Part shown: positions 2,705 to 53,228 of the stretch, in pieces
Layout: every line of letters begins with the position of its first letter
Numbering within the stretch: position 1 is the first letter of the stretch
Sequence record: MW748999.1
Reading direction: 5' to 3' (one strand)
Source of the DNA: Escherichia phage vB_EcoM_Skers
Length of the DNA stretch: 64,000 nt
Made by a program: the position numbers and the translations under genes
The notes under the pieces: model-generated
What the model saw: only the letters and a program-made list of their open reading frames with translations
What the model was told of the DNA's origin: nothing
Databases searched by the model: none

Positions 2705-3259
2705 ATGCTCTTTTCTTTCTTCCCTGCCATTGAATACAACGGCAAGATGATTACTGACATTGTGCGCAATTACCGCGCATATTTCAACGCAATAATTTCT
2801 GATTATAACATACAAACATATTACATTCAAGGTAGTCCACGACCGGAACAAGTTGCATATGAAGTATACGGAAACCAACAACTTTATTGGATCTTGCTGA
2901 TGCTTAATGACGTATACGATCCGTTCCATGACTGGATCACCGATCAAGAGACAGCATATGAATCAGCCGAACAACGATATGCAAACGTAGGAGGAAATCA
3001 AGTATTATACCACGTTGATATTGACGGAAACAAGTATTGGAATCTTACCGAATATCCGAAAGGATCAAGCAATTGGTATGATAAAGGGGATATTCATCAC
3101 CGTTATTTGCAGTTTCAGGGTGCATTATCGGCAGTAGACACACTGGAAGATGCGATCCTCCGTAATGAGGAACGACGCAAGATCAAGATCATAGATCCTA
3201 CACAAATTAAACAATTTATTAACGCATTCATTCGAGAAATGGAAAAGGCTGATGTGTAA
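2705..3259 (+). CDS. 53: gp53 baseplate wedge protein
   Basis: 184 aa immediately upstream of gene 5; N-terminus MLFSFF..NYRAYFNAIISDYN resembles T4 gp53 as remembered. Confidence 0.7.
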   Translation: MLFSFFPAIEYNGKMITDIVRNYRAYFNAIISDYNIQTYYIQGSPRPEQVAYEVYGNQQLYWILLMLNDVYDPFHDWITDQETAYESAEQRYANVGGNQVLYHVDIDGNKYWNLTEYPKGSSNWYDKGDIHHRYLQFQGALSAVDTLEDAILRNEERRKIKIIDPTQIKQFINAFIREMEKADV

Positions 3260-3270
3260 GGTGATTAATT

Positions 3271-5070
3271 ATGCTAATGTTTAATAACTCCGTTAAATGG
3301 TTTACCGGAATTGTAGAAAACAGGGAAGACCCATTAATGCTGGGGCGTGTTCAGGTTAGGATTCATGGTATACATCCCTCGCTATCCGCACACGGTGACA
3401 TTCAAGGTCTTCCAACCGAAGATCTATTATGGATTACGCCAGTACAAGATATTACAAGCGCGGCGATCTCCGGTATAGGTCAAAGCCCTACTGGTATTGT
3501 TGAAGGTTCAATGGTATTTGGTTTGGCTTTAGATGAACGTTATTTAAACTGCGTTATTCTGGGTACTATTGCCGGACAATATACAGAGAAACCACTCACT
3601 ACAGAAGGTTTTTGCGACCCTTCTGGTGCATATCCTCGTTATATTGGTAATGATGTTAATATTCTTGCTCGTGGCGGTATTAACCCAGAAACCGGACAAA
3701 CAACAAAACCTGATAGTGTCTATATTCGAGATGAAAACACTGGAGTTGCAGTAAATCCAGACGACGAGCCATTAGACCAAATTCCGGTTGATGATAATCC
3801 TGATTTTACAATAGAAAAAATGCTGCGGGGCGATGAGGGGTATCGCGAGAAATGGTATCTTGATTCAGAAGGATATCCGACAATAGGCATCGGTCATTTG
3901 ATCATTTATAAGAAAACCAGTGATCTTGGTATTATCAATAATGAACTTTCTAAGCTGGTAGGGCGTGAAGTTACAAACGGAAGACTTACAGCCGAAGAAG
4001 TTAGTAAAGTATTTGCTGACGATATAGAAAAGACTCGTCGTGATATGCGCAAACATCCACGAATTGCACCTGTCTATAATAAATGTAATGCCTCACGTCG
4101 TATGGCATTAGAAAATATGGCGTTTCAAATGGGTGTTGGTGGATTGGGTAAATTTAAGAATAGTCTTGCTGCGATGTTAGCGGAAGAATGGAAACAAGCC
4201 TATGATGGATTACGTCAATCTGTATGGGCTAATCAAACTCCAGGACGGTCAAGCCGTGTTTCTAAAATTATTTTAACTGGTAACTTAGAATCATATGGCG
4301 TAATTGCTCCAAAGAAAGAGGAATCAATTTCTGATGATCCGCGAGCACGTTTGAGAAATGCCCGTATTGCTGCCTATAAGACGCAGAGAGCAGAAGAAGA
4401 CCCAGAAGCACCGTTTACCCCACAAGACACACGAATCATGTTTAAAGAGCCTAAGAGTTCGTATTCTGCAAGGTATCCATATAACCATGTATACGAGTCA
4501 GAGAGCGGTCATATTATCGAGATTGATGATACTCCGTCTCATGAGCGATATCATCGTAAACATCCTTCGGGTACATTTGAAGAAACCAGACCGGACGGAA
4601 CGAGGGTAGAAAAGATCGAAGGTGATGATTATCTGATCGTTAAACAAGGCCGGAAAGTAAACGTTAAGGGTAATTTGCAAGTTGTTGTTGAAGGTGACGC
4701 GCAAGTTTATTATATGGGTAATGTGATACAAACCGTTGATGGTAACGTCACTGAATTTATTCGTGGTAATGTTAATCAGACCGTTGAAGGTACTGCTAAC
4801 ATGCATGTTGTAGGTGATGTTATCGCACAGCTTGACGCTAATTTGACGGCTAATGTCAAGGGTAATGCTGAATTAATGATCGAGGGTAACACTACCGAAA
4901 CAATTAAAGGTAACTATGATTTAACCGTTGAGGGTAATTTTAATATGACCGTCAATGGCACTAAATCAGATCAGGTTAATGGTGACTGGTCCCGTAATTG
5001 TGGTGCAAGCGTTAAAGATATTGCATCTGGTACAGTTAAAATTGATGGTAGCCGTATTGATCTTGGGTGA
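3271..5070 (+). CDS. 5: gp5 baseplate hub subunit / tail-associated lysozyme (cell-puncturing device)
   Basis: 599 aa; N-terminal OB domain; central T4-lysozyme-like segment (DEGYREKWYLDSEGYPTIGIGHLI); C-terminal V-x-G-N octapeptide beta-helix repeats. Confidence 0.9.
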   Translation: MLMFNNSVKWFTGIVENREDPLMLGRVQVRIHGIHPSLSAHGDIQGLPTEDLLWITPVQDITSAAISGIGQSPTGIVEGSMVFGLALDERYLNCVILGTIAGQYTEKPLTTEGFCDPSGAYPRYIGNDVNILARGGINPETGQTTKPDSVYIRDENTGVAVNPDDEPLDQIPVDDNPDFTIEKMLRGDEGYREKWYLDSEGYPTIGIGHLIIYKKTSDLGIINNELSKLVGREVTNGRLTAEEVSKVFADDIEKTRRDMRKHPRIAPVYNKCNASRRMALENMAFQMGVGGLGKFKNSLAAMLAEEWKQAYDGLRQSVWANQTPGRSSRVSKIILTGNLESYGVIAPKKEESISDDPRARLRNARIAAYKTQRAEEDPEAPFTPQDTRIMFKEPKSSYSARYPYNHVYESESGHIIEIDDTPSHERYHRKHPSGTFEETRPDGTRVEKIEGDDYLIVKQGRKVNVKGNLQVVVEGDAQVYYMGNVIQTVDGNVTEFIRGNVNQTVEGTANMHVVGDVIAQLDANLTANVKGNAELMIEGNTTETIKGNYDLTVEGNFNMTVNGTKSDQVNGDWSRNCGASVKDIASGTVKIDGSRIDLG

Positions 5071-39416: not shown

Positions 39417-39899
39417 TGCTAAATCATTGCAATATTTTAGTGCCTTAGTTTGAAATTCTGCGCTGTTAAGTTCTTCATAACGGTCATAATCACCGTTTAA
39501 TGCTGCCTTTCTTGCTTCTTGCTCTATCTGCATGTCAGACATGATAATACAGCGATCCCGTGCTTTCATCTTCTCAAGTTGTATAGACTCTTCTTTCTGT
39601 TTGCGCAATTCTTCTTGACGCTTCTTTTCTTCTCGTGCTTTCTCTTCCCGCGCTTCTTTGATTGCATCCTTGAACATCTGCGTTTGTGGTGCTAAACCAA
39701 CTTTAACGCGATCCACGTCTCGACGTTCCATTTTAGAAATAAAGCATGATTCGATCTGACCATCACTTGCATATGCTGCTTTACATTCACGAAGCAAGAA
39801 AACCGGATCTGATTTAGCCTTCATCATAGCTTCCATGTTAGCACAACCATTAAGCATAGCCACTAAAGCCGCAAGACCAATTAGTTTAATCATTTTCAT
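39411..39899 (-). CDS. putative lipoprotein (162 aa) with signal peptide and lipobox
   Basis: N-terminus MKMIKLIGLAALVAMLNGC (lipobox L-N-G-C); Lys/Glu-rich helical middle; start overlaps stop of the upstream ADP-ribosyltransferase gene. Confidence 0.55.
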   Translation of the reverse strand: MKMIKLIGLAALVAMLNGCANMEAMMKAKSDPVFLLRECKAAYASDGQIESCFISKMERRDVDRVKVGLAPQTQMFKDAIKEAREEKAREEKKRQEELRKQKEESIQLEKMKARDRCIIMSDMQIEQEARKAALNGDYDRYEELNSAEFQTKALKYCNDLAK

Positions 39900-40720
39900 T
39901 TAGTCACCTCACCGAAAATTGTAAATTGTCTACGATTCTCATCGCCGAAAGATTCTACTACGTCGTTTACCTTGACGCAAGTCCCGCGCGGTAAAATTAC
40001 TTCACATTCGCAAGGATTCCATGCAATCGACCCAACAACAAAACCTTTATGATCTTTTACGTCAATTACCCATGATACATTACAAGAATGTTGCATCTTT
40101 CCGGTCATCGATTCATATCGATTCTCACAATAAAGGCTAGTGCTATTTGAAAGCCAGCCTCCAAAGATGATTGGTGTCATGCTGGTTGATACAAAGTTTT
40201 TAAAGGTAAATTCCTTATCTTCAATAATACGCTCTATTGTTTGAATGTCAAGATGTTGACCACGATAAAGAGTACCGTTTAACTTTTCGGTTTTATCCAT
40301 GACGCAATCCATCAAATCAACAATTTCGGATATCTCGTCGGTCATGTCTTCTTCCCCTAAGAGAGCACCATTTACCCATTCGTATTGTTCAGACACATAA
40401 TCACAGATTGCATTATATTCTGCTGGGGTTATGTTGTTATGTTTGTAATGTTTGAATACATTATCTCCAAAATCTTCGGAGTGTACTTCATACATCACAT
40501 TAATGATTTTCTTGATAAATCCATAATCTTGTGTCTCACGCTCAAGGAAGCGGATAACCTTCACATAATCATCAAAGTTAATCTGATCACTGATCATCTC
40601 AGTGATCATGTAACCATTAATCCCCTCAATGTCATATGTTTCGATGTAATTATCCATACGTTCCATCATTGATTCGCGTGATTCTTCTGAAAGACGAAAA
40701 TCCTGTAATTTCTTGAACAT
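39896..40720 (-). CDS. second ADP-ribosyltransferase (Alt/Mod-like paralog, 274 aa)
   Basis: R-S-E triad in order: TLYRGQ (Arg), FVSTSM (STS), CECEVILPRG (catalytic Glu), matching the same motifs in the adjacent full-length Alt. Confidence 0.7.
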   Translation of the reverse strand: MFKKLQDFRLSEESRESMMERMDNYIETYDIEGINGYMITEMISDQINFDDYVKVIRFLERETQDYGFIKKIINVMYEVHSEDFGDNVFKHYKHNNITPAEYNAICDYVSEQYEWVNGALLGEEDMTDEISEIVDLMDCVMDKTEKLNGTLYRGQHLDIQTIERIIEDKEFTFKNFVSTSMTPIIFGGWLSNSTSLYCENRYESMTGKMQHSCNVSWVIDVKDHKGFVVGSIAWNPCECEVILPRGTCVKVNDVVESFGDENRRQFTIFGEVTK

Positions 40721-40797: not shown

Positions 40798-42849
40798 TTA
40801 CATTTTAAATTTATCTGGCATTGCGTCTACAGATACCAGATCAGCGATAAGCTGACGTAGAGTTGCCTTATCTGCTTTCTTACGTTCGGTTTTAGCTTCG
40901 GTAATAAAGCTGGAGAAAGACAGGTCAGAAGCAGGTTTAATAACACCTTCACGGATGAATGCATCACCGTCAGCGATCATCTCGCCAGATTCTTGTAATG
41001 CTGCCAGTTCATTTTTGTTCATAATATGTGCCTCAATGTAATAAGTTTCTTGTGAATCCGTCGATGCCGTAGCACGAGTTACCGTATCAAAGGATAGCAC
41101 AACACCGCGAGGAAGTAAAATCTCGCATTCTTTGTAAGCAAATGCTTTGTTACCTACTGGCAATACAGGGATGTTTTCCGCGCCAGCAATGGAGAAAGCA
41201 ACATTAGCGCCACCTTCACCGCGAGAGCCAGCCATAGAATCAACACCAGCAACGGCACTAGCCACGTTTGCATTCCAGCCGCCAAAAATGTTAGGTGCAA
41301 GGGAAGTGCTCACATAGTTTTTAAAGTAAAACGCTTTTTGCTTACGTGCAGTTTCCCACATTTGCGAACGGAAGTCCATACCACGATACAGAATAGTACC
41401 CGGATCAAGTTTAACGCCATAGTTAGAGAAGGCATTATCCAGTGCATCGCACATCTTGACCAATTCTTCTGGATCTGCGATGCCGTCAAACTCTTCCAGC
41501 TTACGGTCGGTTAGGAAGTTGTTCATATTGATGTATGCTGCATCGGCATATTCGCTCAACACAAAACCTTCCGCGCCCGGCAGATCAAGATCAATATCTG
41601 CCATCATTTCACCCATGTTGCTAGCAATTGCTTCAAACATACCGGAAGCAACATTACGTAGGGCATCGGTTTTAATCTGTGTGATGTGACTACGCAACAT
41701 TTCAGCTTTTACATCTGCTGGCATAGACTGGTCTACTCGATCCATTGCTATGGCAGTGATCTTGTTTTCGAATACGTCCTCGCTCATGATTTCTTTTAAG
41801 CGTTTGATTGATGCTGCGATAACTTCCGCAGACAACGGATCATATTGATCCTGAACTTTTACCAGTTCGCTTACTGCGTATTTTGCATCGGCTTCGCTTT
41901 CAAAAATAGTACGCATGAAACCATAGCGAGTGATAATATCACTTGTCCAGTCATTCAGAGAACGAGCGGTTGAACGTTCTAAGGCTTGACGATCAATCAG
42001 AGTATTAAACTGTTTCTTAGGTTCTGCTTCGGTGATATCTTCTTCCGGTTTAAGATTAATTTTTTCTGGATGATTCACATAGTCGCTGTTATAGGTCGCT
42101 TGAGTTTTCAGCATTTCTTCTTTAGTCAAACGAGATTTAGCCGCTACGCGTTGTTCTGCTTCCGCGTTTCGTTCTTCTTCTGACACAAGACTAGCCGCAT
42201 ATGCCTCATCTTTAGTCAGAGATTCACCAGTAGCCTTAGATACCCAGCGATCACCTAAATCACTTTCTACTTTAGTGAACAAGGATTCATCAAGTTTAAT
42301 CCCTTTAATCTTATCAATCGCCATCCCGCGACGCTTGACAACAACTAAAGCGATCTTTTTGCTGGTCATTACTTCCTGCTGGAATACTTCAAACTTCGGT
42401 GTACGACGCACCAAACGCTCTATAACGCGCTTAACCAGTTCGGTCTTACCCTTCATACGGGATACGTTAAAACGGAACATAACAGCGTCTAATTGCGCTT
42501 TACGGGCTGTTTCCATAACCACATCAAAAGCACTTGCCATAACTGCAATCGGGTTATCGCCTAGACCATTTTTAAGCTGTACAATACGACCGCTTTTGTT
42601 CATTTCGCACAGTACAACATGTGCGGTCTTGTCACCCATACGAATGATTTTAGGTGTTTTGTTGGTGAAGTTACAAAGACGGACAATCACATCTTTATCG
42701 CGTGTCTGTACTGCAAAAAGCTGTTTAGGATTCTGCTTAGGCTTTAAGCACTGTACCGGAGCAATACTGCCAAAGTTTTCTTCCTCTTCCGTCAACAGCC
42801 ATTTCTCGAAAGATTCAATCATTAGATCGTCGATTTCTAAGTTAAACAT
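40798..42849 (-). CDS. alt: Alt ADP-ribosyltransferase (injected head protein)
   Basis: 683 aa (T4 Alt 682 aa); C-terminal ART motifs ILYRGM, YVSTSL, KECEILLPRG; located after gene 54 as in T4. Confidence 0.85.
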   Translation of the reverse strand: MFNLEIDDLMIESFEKWLLTEEEENFGSIAPVQCLKPKQNPKQLFAVQTRDKDVIVRLCNFTNKTPKIIRMGDKTAHVVLCEMNKSGRIVQLKNGLGDNPIAVMASAFDVVMETARKAQLDAVMFRFNVSRMKGKTELVKRVIERLVRRTPKFEVFQQEVMTSKKIALVVVKRRGMAIDKIKGIKLDESLFTKVESDLGDRWVSKATGESLTKDEAYAASLVSEEERNAEAEQRVAAKSRLTKEEMLKTQATYNSDYVNHPEKINLKPEEDITEAEPKKQFNTLIDRQALERSTARSLNDWTSDIITRYGFMRTIFESEADAKYAVSELVKVQDQYDPLSAEVIAASIKRLKEIMSEDVFENKITAIAMDRVDQSMPADVKAEMLRSHITQIKTDALRNVASGMFEAIASNMGEMMADIDLDLPGAEGFVLSEYADAAYINMNNFLTDRKLEEFDGIADPEELVKMCDALDNAFSNYGVKLDPGTILYRGMDFRSQMWETARKQKAFYFKNYVSTSLAPNIFGGWNANVASAVAGVDSMAGSRGEGGANVAFSIAGAENIPVLPVGNKAFAYKECEILLPRGVVLSFDTVTRATASTDSQETYYIEAHIMNKNELAALQESGEMIADGDAFIREGVIKPASDLSFSSFITEAKTERKKADKATLRQLIADLVSVDAMPDKFKM

Positions 42850-43447: not shown

Positions 43448-44002
43448 TTAGTTATTTTTTAATTGCTCATCTTGCAATAGGGCAATCACATGCTGGCGAT
43501 GCTCTTCCGATTGAGGCACACCGAAAAAGTTTGTTTTGTAGAAATACTCTAATCGGTCTTCTCGTGTGCTCTCTTCCATCATGATCGCTGGTAGTCCGAG
43601 ATTTCGGAAACGTCGCTTTTCTGCTGGAGTAAAATCACTGTAATACAACATAGAATCATCATTACCAGCAATGCTAAACTCATCCTTCATAAAGGAGAAT
43701 ATTGCGTTTAAACGCTGTTTACCGTCCACGATTTCGATCTCATAGCGAGAGCCATCATCAATCTTAGCCATTGCGATAGCACCAACCGGAAAATCATTAA
43801 TAAGGTTTTCGATAAACATACGTTTGTTTTCTGTGTCCCATACTAAAGGACGCTGATAATCTGGGTTCATGTTGATATAGCCATCTTCTAACCATGCATC
43901 ATAAACAGAGATGACAAAGTTTTTAGTATTGGTATAGTAACGGCGTTTAGGCGTTAAACGGTTCATGTTATAGTCTCCTGAATGGATCATCACGTAAATC
44001 AA
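43448..44002 (-). CDS. DUF262 / ParB-Srx-superfamily protein (DGxQR motif)
   Basis: motifs PDYQRPLVWDTENKRMFIENLINDFPVG and IVDGKQRLNAI match the DUF262/ParB-like N-terminal domain pattern; true start may be an internal Met near 43966. Confidence 0.6.
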   Translation of the reverse strand: MIYVMIHSGDYNMNRLTPKRRYYTNTKNFVISVYDAWLEDGYINMNPDYQRPLVWDTENKRMFIENLINDFPVGAIAMAKIDDGSRYEIEIVDGKQRLNAIFSFMKDEFSIAGNDDSMLYYSDFTPAEKRRFRNLGLPAIMMEESTREDRLEYFYKTNFFGVPQSEEHRQHVIALLQDEQLKNN

Positions 44003-44300
44003 TATCTTTTAAGAACTCCTCCCATGAATGGCGGATATTGTTCTTAATTCTCCAGATAAGAGCAGGGATTGAACGCTCTCCCATCTGGAAGTATGGATCA
44101 TATGATCCATATGCCCAATATGCTACTACAATTCCACAATCAGCGCAATAATATTCTATTTCACTTGCTGGCGACCAAAGTCCATCAATATGATCGGTGA
44201 TCTTGCTTTCGATGTTATGGCTATGACAATCAGGGCAACGGATGCAATGACCTTGTTTATCGTAATTTGACGTTAGAGAATACTTAAACAATCTCATCAT
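43968..44300 (-). CDS. hypothetical zinc-ribbon protein (110 aa)
   Basis: two CxxC pairs (CIRCPDC ... CADCG); co-oriented and overlapping neighbours. Confidence 0.5.
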   Translation of the reverse strand: MMRLFKYSLTSNYDKQGHCIRCPDCHSHNIESKITDHIDGLWSPASEIEYYCADCGIVVAYWAYGSYDPYFQMGERSIPALIWRIKNNIRHSWEEFLKDIDLRDDPFRRL

Positions 44301-45013
44301 AGATCCTTATTTGCTTCAAATACTGCCTTTGCGAATCCTCGCGGGGTAAGTGACCTTATAGTCTTTGTTTTCGTTCCTTTCCCGCCTAGCTTAGAATGCT
44401 GTTTACTGTACCCTTTATTAATCTGCAAAGGTTTCTTTTCTGGCATTATAAAGCCTTGTCCGGTCCATAAGCAAGTCTTTTTCGGGTACATATCACGGGC
44501 GGCAATATACTCAGGAAACGTAGGATGCTTATCATCTTCCGGCAAATAACCGCCATATTCCCACGGATGGAACATATAATCAGGCTTACGCCACATGCTA
44601 GAGATAACGCTTACAGGATTCTCTATCATGTAGGGAACTCCTAGCCATTCACCCAAATACGCGGTTATTTTGGCTGCCCTTACATCATGAACTTGAATCA
44701 ATGGTCCTTGTTCTCGTTTCTTTCGTTCAAAGTGCGCAGCGCCACTAACAGCTAAATTGGTGCACGGTGGGAATGCAAAGATAATATCCGGTTTCCCCCA
44801 TTCAAGGTCCATTGCTCTTTCCAGCCAGTTCAAATCAATCCAGGTGTTTACATAGGTAATGTTTGGATGTTCAAATCGGGTATTATACTTTTTGTATGTG
44901 CCGTGGTCGGCGTCATCCGCATTAAAGCAGACTACCTTATGACCTGCTTTAGCCCATTCTAGCCCCATTATCCCCGATCCGTCAAAGTTGCAGAATATTA
45001 ATTTTTGTTTCAT
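44297..45013 (-). CDS. truncated DNA C5-cytosine methyltransferase-like protein (238 aa; motifs I, IV, VI only)
   Basis: FCNFDGSG (motif I F-x-G-x-G-like), FPPCTNLAVSGA (motif IV Pro-Cys), MIENP (motif VI ENV-like); no recognisable target-recognition domain or motifs VIII-X. Confidence 0.55.
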   Translation of the reverse strand: MKQKLIFCNFDGSGIMGLEWAKAGHKVVCFNADDADHGTYKKYNTRFEHPNITYVNTWIDLNWLERAMDLEWGKPDIIFAFPPCTNLAVSGAAHFERKKREQGPLIQVHDVRAAKITAYLGEWLGVPYMIENPVSVISSMWRKPDYMFHPWEYGGYLPEDDKHPTFPEYIAARDMYPKKTCLWTGQGFIMPEKKPLQINKGYSKQHSKLGGKGTKTKTIRSLTPRGFAKAVFEANKDL

Positions 45014-50239: not shown

Positions 50240-50716
50240 TTATTTTTCTTGATGCTCGCGCTCGTACTTTTCGAAATAAAATTCTACTGGCTGGTCGTGG
50301 ATTGACAGTAAGCCAAAGCGTTTAGCCGCTCGCAATCCCATATTGCGCTGAATGTACTTCTGGAAGTTCTCGCGTATACACTTACGCCAGTATTCTAAGC
50401 CCATACAGCTTTTATAAAGATTGCATTGCACACATGCCGGATTCATGTTATCAAGTATATCATGCTCCGGTTTATGCATTCCTACAACCTTATACTTCCA
50501 CGATCCATCATCATTACGGGCAATTCGTCCATTTTCATCATAGACTACCTTTGAGCGTCGCAATACTGGTTTGATGTGGTCTGCGTGCCAGCGATCCCCT
50601 AGTTCCTCGCCACAATAGGCACAACGTCCACCATATTTCATTTTCAGGATCTGGCGTTGCTCTTTCTTTGACAATTTTTTAGGTTTAGGGGCTTTCGCCC
50701 CTTCATTATCACACAT
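50240..50716 (-). CDS. HNH endonuclease (free-standing, homing-endonuclease-like)
   Basis: 158 aa; HNH core GRCAYCGEEL...WHADHIKPV...NMNPACVQCN (Cys pair, His-x-Asp-His, Asn, Cys pair); start overlaps DNA ligase stop. Confidence 0.75.
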   Translation of the reverse strand: MCDNEGAKAPKPKKLSKKEQRQILKMKYGGRCAYCGEELGDRWHADHIKPVLRRSKVVYDENGRIARNDDGSWKYKVVGMHKPEHDILDNMNPACVQCNLYKSCMGLEYWRKCIRENFQKYIQRNMGLRAAKRFGLLSIHDQPVEFYFEKYEREHQEK

Positions 50717-52208
50717 CGAATACCTCTTTTACTGTATTTGCAGTGGTCTTGTCGTAGCGAATACGTTTGATGATCGGGAGAAATAAAGAGAACTCTGGTT
50801 CATCTTCTTTACGTGATTTGCTGCGGATATACCCGTTGCATGTCATCTCAATGACTTTTCCAATCAGGTTATGACGGTCAGCCCATAACATTTCTCGGTC
50901 AAGTTCATTTCTACGATCGAACGGAATCACACGTTCAATACCATCATCTTTTTCGGTTGTAGTGTCGGTCAATCCCGATCCGGTGTTGGTCATCATTCGT
51001 CCGCACGCACTACGGACAGTAAAACCGCCTACCTTATTAGGATCTTTACTATGCGGATATACATCAACAATTTCCGCGTCGAAGTCAATCACTTCTTTAA
51101 ATTTAACCTGATCTTTACTACGGCGATCTTCAAATACACCATGTAAATTTTTAAGGATAATACCTTCTAAGCCCATGTTTACATAGCGATGATATACTTC
51201 GCGAGCTTCATCTATATTGTTAACTACAGTGTTTTCGATTATCTGAACACGAGGATCGTTAAGTTCTTCAACAATCTGTTTTAGTTCTTCGAATCGATCT
51301 TTATATTGCTTCGTTGCTTTCTCGTTTCCGTAATACACATCACGGTCGATAACATCCCAGACAGTGTAAACAATACATTGGGCTTCTTCTTTTGGAATAG
51401 TTCCTTTCAGTGATTTGTTGAGGATACCATTTCCGGTCTGACGATCTGCAACAACGGATTCTTTTACTGCTTCCGCTACTGGCGTTAATGGCATTTCCTC
51501 TTCTTCAAATATCCATGACAGAGTACCATCATAAACGCTTTCAACGAAGTTCTGCGCTGGTGTTTGCGAAAGGGTAGGCATATATACCAATTCCCCATCT
51601 AGAACAATTCCACGGCCTCGTAGACGCTCTAAAACAGCAAACAAATCATCCAGCCCCTGATAGGTATTACCTGAACGGGTATAGATTGCTAATGTTTCCC
51701 CGTCAATATCAGCCATCCCACGAGCGCCATCGCTTTTAAGTTGTGCATACGCCGGATACTTGATATTAGCAATAGTCTTATCAGAACATGACGATGCAAG
51801 GTGGCACGGTTGCTGAGGGATCAGTTTCTTCCATACCTTGTTTGCAGTGGTAGCGGAACAACCGCATTCCAGATCACGATTCAGGACCATCATTGCAACT
51901 TTAGCATCATCTTCTGACAAGCAAGTCAGAGTATCGGTAACTAGCTGTAATGCTGCATTACCAGTTACTTGACGCGTGGCAAGTTTATTTTTAAAGACCT
52001 GTAATGCACCGGATAAAGACAATACAGACGAATAACGCGATGGTTTATCGTATTTCTTTACGCCAAACGTAACCTGTTTGCAATATGCCAGATAAAAACA
52101 TTCTTTCAGTGTTTCATTGCTTGCAGATTCTTTCAGGATCTTTTCTTTCAGCGATGTTTTGTCTGTTGCTGCAAGCTGGTTAATGATATTAAGAATTGAC
52201 ATTTTCAC
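50709..52208 (-). CDS. 30: gp30 ATP-dependent DNA ligase
   Basis: 499 aa (T4 ligase 487 aa); motif I lysine in AQLKSDGARG (KxDG); located after alt region as in T4. Confidence 0.9.
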   Translation of the reverse strand: MKMSILNIINQLAATDKTSLKEKILKESASNETLKECFYLAYCKQVTFGVKKYDKPSRYSSVLSLSGALQVFKNKLATRQVTGNAALQLVTDTLTCLSEDDAKVAMMVLNRDLECGCSATTANKVWKKLIPQQPCHLASSCSDKTIANIKYPAYAQLKSDGARGMADIDGETLAIYTRSGNTYQGLDDLFAVLERLRGRGIVLDGELVYMPTLSQTPAQNFVESVYDGTLSWIFEEEEMPLTPVAEAVKESVVADRQTGNGILNKSLKGTIPKEEAQCIVYTVWDVIDRDVYYGNEKATKQYKDRFEELKQIVEELNDPRVQIIENTVVNNIDEAREVYHRYVNMGLEGIILKNLHGVFEDRRSKDQVKFKEVIDFDAEIVDVYPHSKDPNKVGGFTVRSACGRMMTNTGSGLTDTTTEKDDGIERVIPFDRRNELDREMLWADRHNLIGKVIEMTCNGYIRSKSRKEDEPEFSLFLPIIKRIRYDKTTANTVKEVFDV

Positions 52209-52668
52209 CTCGTTTTGTTAAACGTTCACGAATATCATTGAGGATACTACAAAATTCCGATTCAGTCAATATAGTCTTTAACGGATCAGTTCCACCTATG
52301 CTATGTCGCAATTTCTTATTTCCGGTCGCGAGTAATGCTTTACAAAATTCTGGGTTATTCCGTGCCATCGTAACAAATGCCAGATGTACCAGTCTGTAAT
52401 AATGCTCACTCATTCGATGAATCGGGCGACCCTGAAAATATAACATGTGATTCTCAATCTTTTCAGTTCTTCCGGTTCTTTTTGCTTTGCCACCGTGCAT
52501 CAAAAAGATTTCTCTTTGTCTCTGAGGGTTCTTAAATCTTAGCCCCTGTAAAAATCCTTCTGTGCTGTTAATATCGCAACCAAATAGACGGAATGGTCTT
52601 TTATTGAAATTACTCAATTCACCCGATGGATAAGGTCCACCCGCATAGATATCAATTTCAGAAGTCAT
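52189..52668 (-). CDS. NADAR (YbiA/DUF1768) domain protein
   Basis: 159 aa; patterns ELSNF...PF, NSTEGFLQGLRF and KALLATG parallel E. coli YbiA segments (DFSNF, PTSEHYFQAQKF, ALLLAT) as remembered. Confidence 0.6.
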   Translation of the reverse strand: MTSEIDIYAGGPYPSGELSNFNKRPFRLFGCDINSTEGFLQGLRFKNPQRQREIFLMHGGKAKRTGRTEKIENHMLYFQGRPIHRMSEHYYRLVHLAFVTMARNNPEFCKALLATGNKKLRHSIGGTDPLKTILTESEFCSILNDIRERLTKRGENVNS

Positions 52669-52822
52669 TGAAACTAATCTCGCTAATCAGAGAGAACGGA
52701 TCATAATCGTCATTAGGAATATCGATAGTAATCGAATGAGGATTTACCCATACACCAAACTGGTCTTCTTCGGTGAATACTTCGGTATGGATTTCGTGGA
52801 TGTTTACATTCATAGTTTTCAT
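52658..52822 (-). CDS. hypothetical small acidic protein (about 54 aa)
   Basis: hand-translated (MKTMNVNIHEIHTEVFTEEDQFGVWVNPHS...); SD AAGGAA upstream; 3' end overlaps NADAR gene start; below track cutoff. Confidence 0.3.
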   Translation of the reverse strand: MKTMNVNIHEIHTEVFTEEDQFGVWVNPHSITIDIPNDDYDPFSLISEISFNDF

Positions 52823-52861: not shown

Positions 52862-52893
52862 TAGCCAAAATATAGGCGGGATTATTTCCCGCC
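52862..52893 (-). terminator. rho-independent terminator after gene 31
   Basis: minus-strand GGCGGGAAATAATCCCGCC followed by TATATTTTGG. Confidence 0.6.
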
Positions 52894-52904: not shown

Positions 52905-53228
52905 TTAACCGTAAACTACCACAATATTCTGTTTGTGCGTTACAGTCCATTTCAGGTCGATCTCTTCTTCCTTCTTAACGCCGTTAATAACGTCTGGATG
53001 AGGAACTTTATTCATCTTTCCATGTGGCAGTAGAACAGTTTTACCCAGCAATTCTTTATCTACCGTTTCACCAATATCAATAATCTTACCTACCAGCGGA
53101 ATCTCGCCCATAGTGCGCTTTTGCTCAATAATGATCCCCATAGAGCTTTTTACTTCGGTCCCTGCGCTTTCTGCTTTAGCTTCGATAATTACATAATCAC
53201 CAAGTGCTTTAGGAGTTTTAACGGTCAT
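52905..53228 (-). CDS. 31: gp31 head assembly co-chaperonin (GroES-like)
   Basis: 107 aa (T4 gp31 111 aa); GroES-like pattern (YVIIEAKAESAG, KVPHPDV parallel to T4 NVPHPFV). Confidence 0.75.
   Translation of the reverse strand: MTVKTPKALGDYVIIEAKAESAGTEVKSSMGIIIEQKRTMGEIPLVGKIIDIGETVDKELLGKTVLLPHGKMNKVPHPDVINGVKKEEEIDLKWTVTHKQNIVVVYG

Follow-up and report, generated by a model that had tools for sequence, protein, structure and literature searches.

A Krischvirus ortholog of the T4 anti-DarT factor AdfN (gp30.3) in Escherichia phage vB_EcoM_Skers

Introduction

Phages T4 and T2 escape the DarTG1 defense system with AdfN (anti-DarT factor NADAR), a guanine-specific DNA ADP-ribosylglycohydrolase that is both required for this escape and sufficient for it (Johannesman et al., Nat Commun 2025; Toxins 2024; HIDEN-SEQ preprint 2025). 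After deletion of the coding gene (30.3 or adfN), T4 and T2 become about 10^4-fold sensitive to DarTG1, and the substitutions E36A and K43A impair the counter-defense (PMC11257639, PMC11825919). The purified enzyme removes ADP-ribose (ADPr) from DarT1-modified DNA, but DarTG2 is not countered (PMC11257639, PMC11825919). A separate biochemical study saw the same preference in vitro, where gp30.3 hydrolyzes guanosine-ADPr and leaves thymidine-ADPr intact (PMC11125620). Furthermore, transposon insertions in 30.3/adfN were lost specifically on DarTG1 hosts (10.1101/2025.11.20.689424), and phage RB69, whose own allele is 15 residues shorter, was fully rescued by ectopic AdfN (PMC11257639, PMC11825919). 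Here we describe the orthologous gene of Escherichia phage vB_EcoM_Skers (record MW748999.1), which lies on the minus strand of a 64,000-nucleotide stretch of the phage DNA that was analyzed as a whole (hereafter, the window).

Results and discussion

Orthology with T4 gene 30.3 and conservation in Krischvirus

The gene sits between gene 31 and the DNA ligase gene 30 in a T4-like backbone and is the Krischvirus (RB49-type) positional ortholog of T4 gene 30.3. Its product aligned end to end with T4 gp30.3 (BLASTP, 38% identity over 151 residues, E 2e-30) and is 100% identical in protein sequence to gp30.3 of phage RB49 (AJ550428.1, CAD79437.1), whose record names the neighboring genes 31, 31.-1, 30.3 and 30. 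The order in T4 is 31, rIII, 30.9...30.4, 30.3, 30.2, 30.1, 30, alt.1, alt. The RB49 lineage lacks the T4 neighbors 30.1, 30.2 and 30.4 of gene 30.3, which therefore abuts the ligase gene directly.

The surrounding 5 kb shares 97–98% DNA identity with 59 phage records that are named as Escherichia, Enterobacteria or Shigella phages or as Krischvirus (among them kaaroe, W115 and JK32); for kaaroe and RB49, the classification given is Krischvirus RB49. The gene is full length in every one of the 59, with 95–99.4% nucleotide identity. The closest relative outside Krischvirus (P0002) is encoded on a metagenomic contig with a matching gene order (rnlA, pseT, cd, 31, 31.-1, 30.3, 30). The two proteins are 69% identical and share an arginine at position 44, where most of the family has a catalytic lysine. 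Comparison of adfN with the P0002 gene gave a ratio of nonsynonymous to synonymous substitution rates (dN/dS) of 0.11 (Nei-Gojobori; dS near saturation), and the gene is thus under purifying selection.

Intact reading frames in 59 of 59 genomes and the low dN/dS within the arginine-bearing lineage argue against a decaying or nonfunctional allele like the truncated copy of RB69. That phage demonstrates that natural loss-of-function alleles exist (PMC11825919), and the loss of the catalytic lysine would fit such an allele. However, the Skers protein is full length, retains its C-terminal helix and yields a very confident structural model, so that decay has only a slim chance of being the right explanation.

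NADAR fold and family membership

Profile searches assigned the protein to PF08010 ("Bacteriophage protein GP30.3") with 132.5 bits (cut-off 36; E 1.2e-38; positions 2–138 of the 138 in the profile) and to PHROG 652 (E 2.5e-45). The generic NADAR model, PF08719, reached 15.5 bits and remained below its gathering threshold of 35.1. Pfam alone hence identified a gp30.3-family protein, and its NADAR identity needed structural confirmation. The AlphaFold2 (AF2) model was very confident (predicted local distance difference test, pLDDT, 94), has the alpha+beta fold of NADAR (YbiA-like) proteins and matched NADAR structures only. The best matches were E. coli YbiA (2b3w, 12.1), the Phytophthora nicotianae NADAR with ADP-ribose (8bau, 12.0) and the DarT1-associated NADAR of Geobacter lovleyi (8bat, 9.9), followed at a distance by the next best structure (4.1).

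The family profile points in the same direction. Its segment "...sm-E-gllQsl-K-f" aligns with "TS-E-HYFQAQ-K-F", the catalytic motif of YbiA (TSEHYFQAQKF), to which the E-x6-basic motif of gp30.3 corresponds. The initial annotation of the window had recognized YbiA/NADAR motifs in the sequence, and all of them are in the translation: S19-N20-F21, P25-F26, S35–F45 (STEGFLQGLRF) and A111–G116 (ALLATG). Membership of the protein in the AdfN family of NADARs is, in our assessment, practically certain.

When PDB sequences were searched with the protein (phmmer), no NADAR came up. The top match, nominally significant, was 7vhv_D (E 3.8e-4), a DltA D-alanine carrier-protein ligase, with query residues 45–151 aligned to the C-terminal part of DltA, and a weak echo of this match appeared in NCBIfam (PRK04813, E 0.24). 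We judged the similarity to be spurious because the model matches only NADARs and the family profile aligns with the YbiA motif.

Could the protein nevertheless be a housekeeping N-glycosidase of the YbiA type, which detoxifies intermediates of the riboflavin pathway and has no role in defense? The initial annotation had kept open an assignment to the riboflavin-repair YbiA subgroup only. The contrast between the PF08719 and PF08010 scores speaks against it, as does residue H122, a histidine in place of the last-strand glutamic acid that defines the YbiA class (PMC11125620); together they place the protein in the gp30.3 class. Furthermore, the phenotype of the T4 ortholog is specific to DarTG1. 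A YbiA-type role can thus be virtually dismissed.

Active-site residues and the lysine-to-arginine substitution

A word-indexed homolog search returned 13 proteins only, and an exhaustive representative search was required to see the family (973 matches at E ≤1e-3, from which 150 representatives with 167 domains were aligned). The glutamic acid E37, which aligns with the catalytic E36 of T4 AdfN, is conserved in 161 of the 167 domains. Almost as conserved is the histidine of the last beta-strand (160 of 167). H122 aligns with H123 of T4 AdfN, is invariant in alignment A1 and belongs to the last beta-strand, which the model places at residues 119–121. This last-strand residue distinguishes the NADAR classes, as it is a histidine in phage NADARs, a glutamic acid in YbiA and an aspartic acid in DarG1 (PMC11125620, PMC11543638). 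The AF2 model also contains the C-terminal helix (residues 136–157), and the alignment with T4 gp30.3 extends to its final residue. This helix is the element removed by a frameshift in the DarTG1-sensitive allele of RB69 (PMC11825919).

The third catalytic position departs from the T4 enzyme. Position 44, seven residues after the glutamic acid, is basic but has an arginine rather than the lysine found in most of the family (Lys in 151 and Arg in 10 of the 167 domains). Arginine-bearing sequences with an otherwise intact motif fall in at least three separate clusters, the nearest neighbors of which carry lysine. This distribution suggests that arginine is a recurrent and tolerated minority state.

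The substitution, together with the 62% divergence from T4 AdfN, raises the alternative that the RB49-type enzyme acts mainly on a different ADP-ribosylated substrate. Candidates might be cytidine-ADPr, RNA bases, a soluble ADPr derivative or what another toxin of the DarT-like or YarT-like kind produces. Iyer et al. made the case that soluble derivatives of ADPr may be the preferred substrates of phage NADARs (PMC9503650). Furthermore, the equivalent substitution in the NADAR of E. coli C7 (K95R) uncouples activity in vitro from function in vivo: the variant hydrolyzes guanine-ADPr but has lost the ability to rescue cells from DarT1 (PMC11543638). However, the competence of K95R in vitro and the recurrence of arginine in separate intact clusters make the residue look tolerated, and E37, H122, the fold and the genome position are unchanged. 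The three phage NADARs that have been assayed come from three clades, and all are guanine-specific anti-DarTG1 factors (PMC11825919). We consider a change of substrate quite unlikely.

The family alignment also brought up longer metagenomic proteins with fused domains (P0021, P0058, P0061, P0070 and P0140). Among ten long members that were scanned, the additional part was a metallophosphoesterase, a thymidine kinase, Lgt, LRR_5 (BspA-type LRR) or a gp30.3 repeat in tandem; in others, no second domain was recognized. Several of the second gp30.3 copies have degenerate catalytic motifs. These fusions are heterogeneous and functionally uninformative, and some may be gene-calling artifacts.

Phage ADP-ribosyltransferases

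Two ADP-ribosyltransferase (ART) genes had been reported in the window, and both indeed match PF03496 (ADPrib_exo_Tox) and Alt-like PHROGs (Table 1). The initial annotation offered, as an alternative to counter-defense, that the NADAR is paired with them. The enzyme would then reverse or limit the modifications made by Alt and the shorter Alt-like ART, or clear their by-products. The two genes lie within the same 13-kb stretch and on the same strand as adfN, and the early expression of T4-like NADARs along with ARTs, described by Iyer et al. (PMC9503650), provides a precedent. The proposal found no support here or in later experiments, however. The distance from the ART genes to 30.3 is 9.3–12.8 kb and includes more than 25 small open reading frames (ORFs), and the order alt...30...30.3 belongs to the ancestral T4 backbone, not to a specific operon. 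Because T4 has the same order, the arrangement reflects inherited synteny rather than a dedicated module. T4 Alt is a virion-packaged ART that modifies arginines in proteins, and we know of no report of NADAR activity on arginine-directed protein ADP-ribosylation; both points count against pairing. Members of the gp30.3 family are also found in numerous contexts and fusions that have nothing to do with ARTs. Finally, the T4 adfN phenotype is conditional on DarTG1, since T4 can do without the gene on plain K-12 and requires it only when DarTG1 is present (10.1101/2025.11.20.689424, PMC11825919). A functional partnership with the phage's own ARTs is, on balance, very improbable.

The kaaroe genome has a third gene annotated as an "ADP-ribosylase" (kaaroe_156), of a size similar to ModA/ModB.

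Anti-DarTG genes and DNA modification across the genome

Genome-wide checks were made by tblastn on the complete genome of kaaroe, a close relative. No homolog of AdfA (gp61.2), gp42, beta-gt, gp30.2 or gp30.4 was found in it; the T4 gp42 and beta-gt queries gave only a weak match, located at the annotated thymidylate synthase gene. In the absence of an AdfA match, AdfN is the only recognizable anti-DarTG1 factor in kaaroe. The same genome has a homolog of tk.4 (L009, 6503..6958; outside the window) whose product is 44% identical to T4 Tk.4 (E 5e-39). The Tk.4 macrodomain was recently named AdfM and counters DarTG2 (10.1101/2025.11.20.689424). Judging from these homologies, the RB49-type lineage appears to carry one anti-DarTG1 and one anti-DarTG2 enzyme.

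RB49 DNA contains neither hydroxymethylcytosine nor its glucosylated form (PMC4041780), in agreement with the gp42 and beta-gt results in kaaroe. A 2024 preprint proposed that AdfN is specialized for hydroxymethylated DNA, and a copy in RB49 would then have been surprising. The proposal was withdrawn in the published version, in which T4-GT7 remained dependent on AdfN despite its unmodified cytosine (PMC11825919). For this reason, the presence of AdfN in RB49 is not anomalous.

Two ORFs of the variable region between alt and the ligase gene have predicted functions related to DNA modification. One (43448..44002, minus strand, 184 aa) has a GmrSD_N/DUF262 domain (PF03235, E 6e-20) but matches only the first ~180 of 417 positions of its PHROG and may be truncated. 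The other (44297..45013, minus strand, 238 aa) is located on the same strand, ~300 bp upstream of the first, and matches PHROG 757 ("DNA methyltransferase"); its counterpart in kaaroe is annotated as Dcm. A domain resembling those of type IV restriction is curious in a phage with unmodified cytosine.

Proposed function

Orthology, the NADAR fold, two of the three catalytic residues (the glutamic acid and the histidine), full length and purifying selection were all observed in the Skers gene. It is from them that we infer function, and during infection the protein most likely serves as a guanine-ADPr DNA glycohydrolase directed against DarTG1. By analogy with the experiments in T4, its substrate would be guanine-ADP-ribose in DNA, its target DarTG1 and not DarTG2, and its expression early enough for replication to be protected. 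When the phage infects E. coli carrying DarTG1, the DarT1 toxin would ADP-ribosylate guanine at N2 in single-stranded phage DNA and block its replication. AdfN, a predicted single-domain N-glycosidase of the NADAR fold, would be made from the 31.-1/30.3/30 gene string, bind the ADP-ribose and hydrolyze the ribose-guanine bond, so that unmodified DNA is restored and replication proceeds. In the active site, E37 and H122 would be placed around the distal ribose, and R44 may take the phosphate-coordinating role of the usual lysine.

Several points weigh against this reading. Identity to T4 AdfN is only 38%, and the catalytic lysine (K43 in T4) is an arginine. Because the C7 variant K95R loses rescue in vivo (PMC11543638), full potency of the R44 allele against DarTG1 is not guaranteed. 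T4 AdfN fully works only during T-even infection and may need a further phage factor, and the T4 neighbors gp30.2 and gp30.4 are absent from the RB49 lineage. Furthermore, the phages tested in the T4 study were Tevenvirinae (PMC11825919), and our literature search (Krischvirus with DarTG; RB49 with AdfN) found no experiment on a Krischvirus phage or on RB49 gp30.3.

Some of these points also make it conceivable that AdfN of the whole RB49/Krischvirus clade is functionally shifted, either to another substrate or toxin or to independence from the T-even helper factor that T4 AdfN seems to need. The case for such a shift comes from the lysine-to-arginine change, the unmodified cytosine and the lack of AdfA, gp30.2 and gp30.4; we consider it unlikely. 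The RB49 context, with unmodified DNA and none of the T4 neighbors of 30.3, may bear on why T4 AdfN works only in a T-even setting.

The anti-DarTG1 function agrees with the main hypothesis of the initial annotation, which is correct and already in the literature. That annotation had proposed that the NADAR could strip ADP-ribose from guanine in DNA to counter DarT-type toxins. The proposal stands for DarT1 and guanine, as shown for the T4 ortholog, but not for DarT2, which modifies thymine. The gene is thus a known member of a known family whose mechanism was demonstrated in T4, and its presence here adds a further T4-like lineage to those in which this counter-defense gene is confirmed. In practice, the finding is useful for annotation, given that almost all of the Krischvirus records listed have the gene as a "hypothetical protein" although the function of the family has been demonstrated since 2024–2025.

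Gene neighborhood

The adfN ORF has exactly the position and strand first reported for it, with an ATG start and a TAA stop, and the DNA ligase gene adjoins it as described (Table 1). Gene 31 is followed on the minus strand by a hairpin with a T-rich tail, 31.-1, 30.3, 30 and an ORF for an HNH endonuclease, in this order. The ligase ATG (at 52202) is located 14 nt inside the 3' end of adfN, an overlap that is identical in the RB49 record. Upstream, 31.-1 ends with a stop codon that overlaps the start of adfN by 11 nt, an arrangement suggestive of translational coupling between these two genes. With both overlaps, 31.-1, 30.3 and 30 all look translationally coupled. To see whether 31.-1 might be a conserved partner, we compared it with T4 gp30.4, but the two show no similarity.

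Table 1. Features of the adfN locus and of the Alt-like genes, with positions in the window
Feature	Position	Strand	Evidence or remark
adfN / gene 30.3 coding sequence (159 aa + stop)	52189..52668	-	ATG start, TAA stop; NADAR-fold gp30.3 class
E37 codon, equivalent of the catalytic Glu	52558..52560	-	T4 AdfN E36, Phytophthora NADAR E43, E. coli C7 NADAR E88
R44 codon (AGA), position of the phosphate-coordinating catalytic Lys	52537..52539	-	T4 K43, Phytophthora nicotianae K50, C7 K95
H122 codon, last beta-strand (KKLRHSIGG)	52303..52305	-	Hallmark of phage gp30.3-type NADARs (PMC11125620, PMC11543638)
C-terminal alpha-helix, residues 136–157	52198..52263	-	AF2 model; for the role of this helix, see PMC11825919
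Gene 30, ATP-dependent DNA ligase	50709..52202	-	PF01068, E 2.7e-22; same transcription unit; positional orthology marker
31.-1, small ORF upstream of adfN (54 aa)	52658..52822	-	Named 31.-1 in the RB49 record; PHROG 15277
GC-rich hairpin and T-rich tail between gene 31 and 31.-1	52875..52893	-	Terminator consensus scan and sequence
Gene 31, co-chaperonin	52905..53228	-	
HNH endonuclease ORF (158 aa)	50240..50716	-	PF01844; PHROG 2118, E 8e-55
Alt-like ADP-ribosyltransferase (683 aa), full-length Alt homolog	40798..42849	-	PF03496, E 3e-9; PHROG 802, E 1.9e-179
Shorter Alt-like ADP-ribosyltransferase (274 aa), resembles the catalytic part of Alt	39896..40720	-	PF03496, E 4.1e-16; PHROG 15144 and 802

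The hairpin between gene 31 and 31.-1 has a perfect 7-bp stem (GGCGGGA-AATAA-TCCCGCC) followed by TATATTTTGG. It is terminator-like and could mark a boundary of the 31.-1/30.3/30 unit, although this is weak evidence: the promoter and terminator scan showed no enrichment, and the number of terminator-like sites was not above that expected from shuffled sequence. As the scan gave no enrichment over shuffled sequence, we claim no specific promoter. The hairpin may also correspond to a boundary of the promoter/stem-loop (PeSL) modules of RB49-like phages (PMC4122927).

Directly downstream of the ligase gene, and overlapping its stop region, is the HNH ORF, which probably encodes a homing-type endonuclease. 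Several close relatives align to the 5-kb stretch in 2–3 pieces with 350–1,400 extra bases, and the region is therefore prone to insertions and deletions.

Comparison with described NADAR systems

E. coli YbiA (PDB 2B3W; PF08719) shares the fold of the Skers protein but differs from it in family profile and in the last-strand residue, as described above. The two also differ in role, YbiA being an N-glycosidase of riboflavin intermediates or a member of an SOS operon and gp30.3 a phage counter-defense protein.

Several differences separate gp30.3 from the DarG1 and DarT1-associated NADAR antitoxins of the BC4488 subfamily, such as the E. coli C7 NADAR and the Geobacter lovleyi NADAR (PDB 8BAT). 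The phage protein lacks their N-terminal extension of the fold. It begins only 18 residues before the SNF motif and has 159 residues, as opposed to 219 in the 8bat chain and 229–234 in full-length DarT1-associated NADARs (PMC11543638). Its last strand has a histidine where DarG1 has the catalytic aspartic acid. Furthermore, no DarT1 toxin is encoded beside it, which makes it an "orphan antitoxin" of the phage: its neighbors are 31.-1 and the DNA ligase, and the region has no ARTs other than the Alt-like ones (PF03496), which are at least about 9 kb away. Functionally, T4 AdfN cannot replace DarG1 in uninfected cells.

AdfN-Bas32 and AdfN-Bas60 from T5-like and Vequintavirinae phages are also phage orphan NADARs, active against DarTG1 and not DarTG2 (PMC11825919). 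They belong to other NADAR clades and were independently acquired, however, and both neutralize DarT1 in uninfected cells, unlike T4 AdfN.

The closest described system is T4 gp30.3/AdfN itself. It differs from the Skers protein in the catalytic lysine and in much of the sequence, and the phages differ in that the cytosine of the RB49 type is unmodified (PMC4041780). The T4 record also has an internal, out-of-frame ORF within gene 30.3 (30.3'; 3134..3361 of that T4 locus) that lacks a counterpart here, where the RB49-type gene contained no same-strand ORF of at least 40 aa in an alternative frame and only two antisense ORFs (67 and 52 aa). Yet both proteins belong to the same Pfam family, adopt the same fold as single domains with no N-terminal extension and have nearly equal lengths (159 aa here and 152 aa in T4). 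They also share the conserved glutamic acid, the phage-specific histidine, the C-terminal helix and the position of their genes downstream of 31 and upstream of 30.

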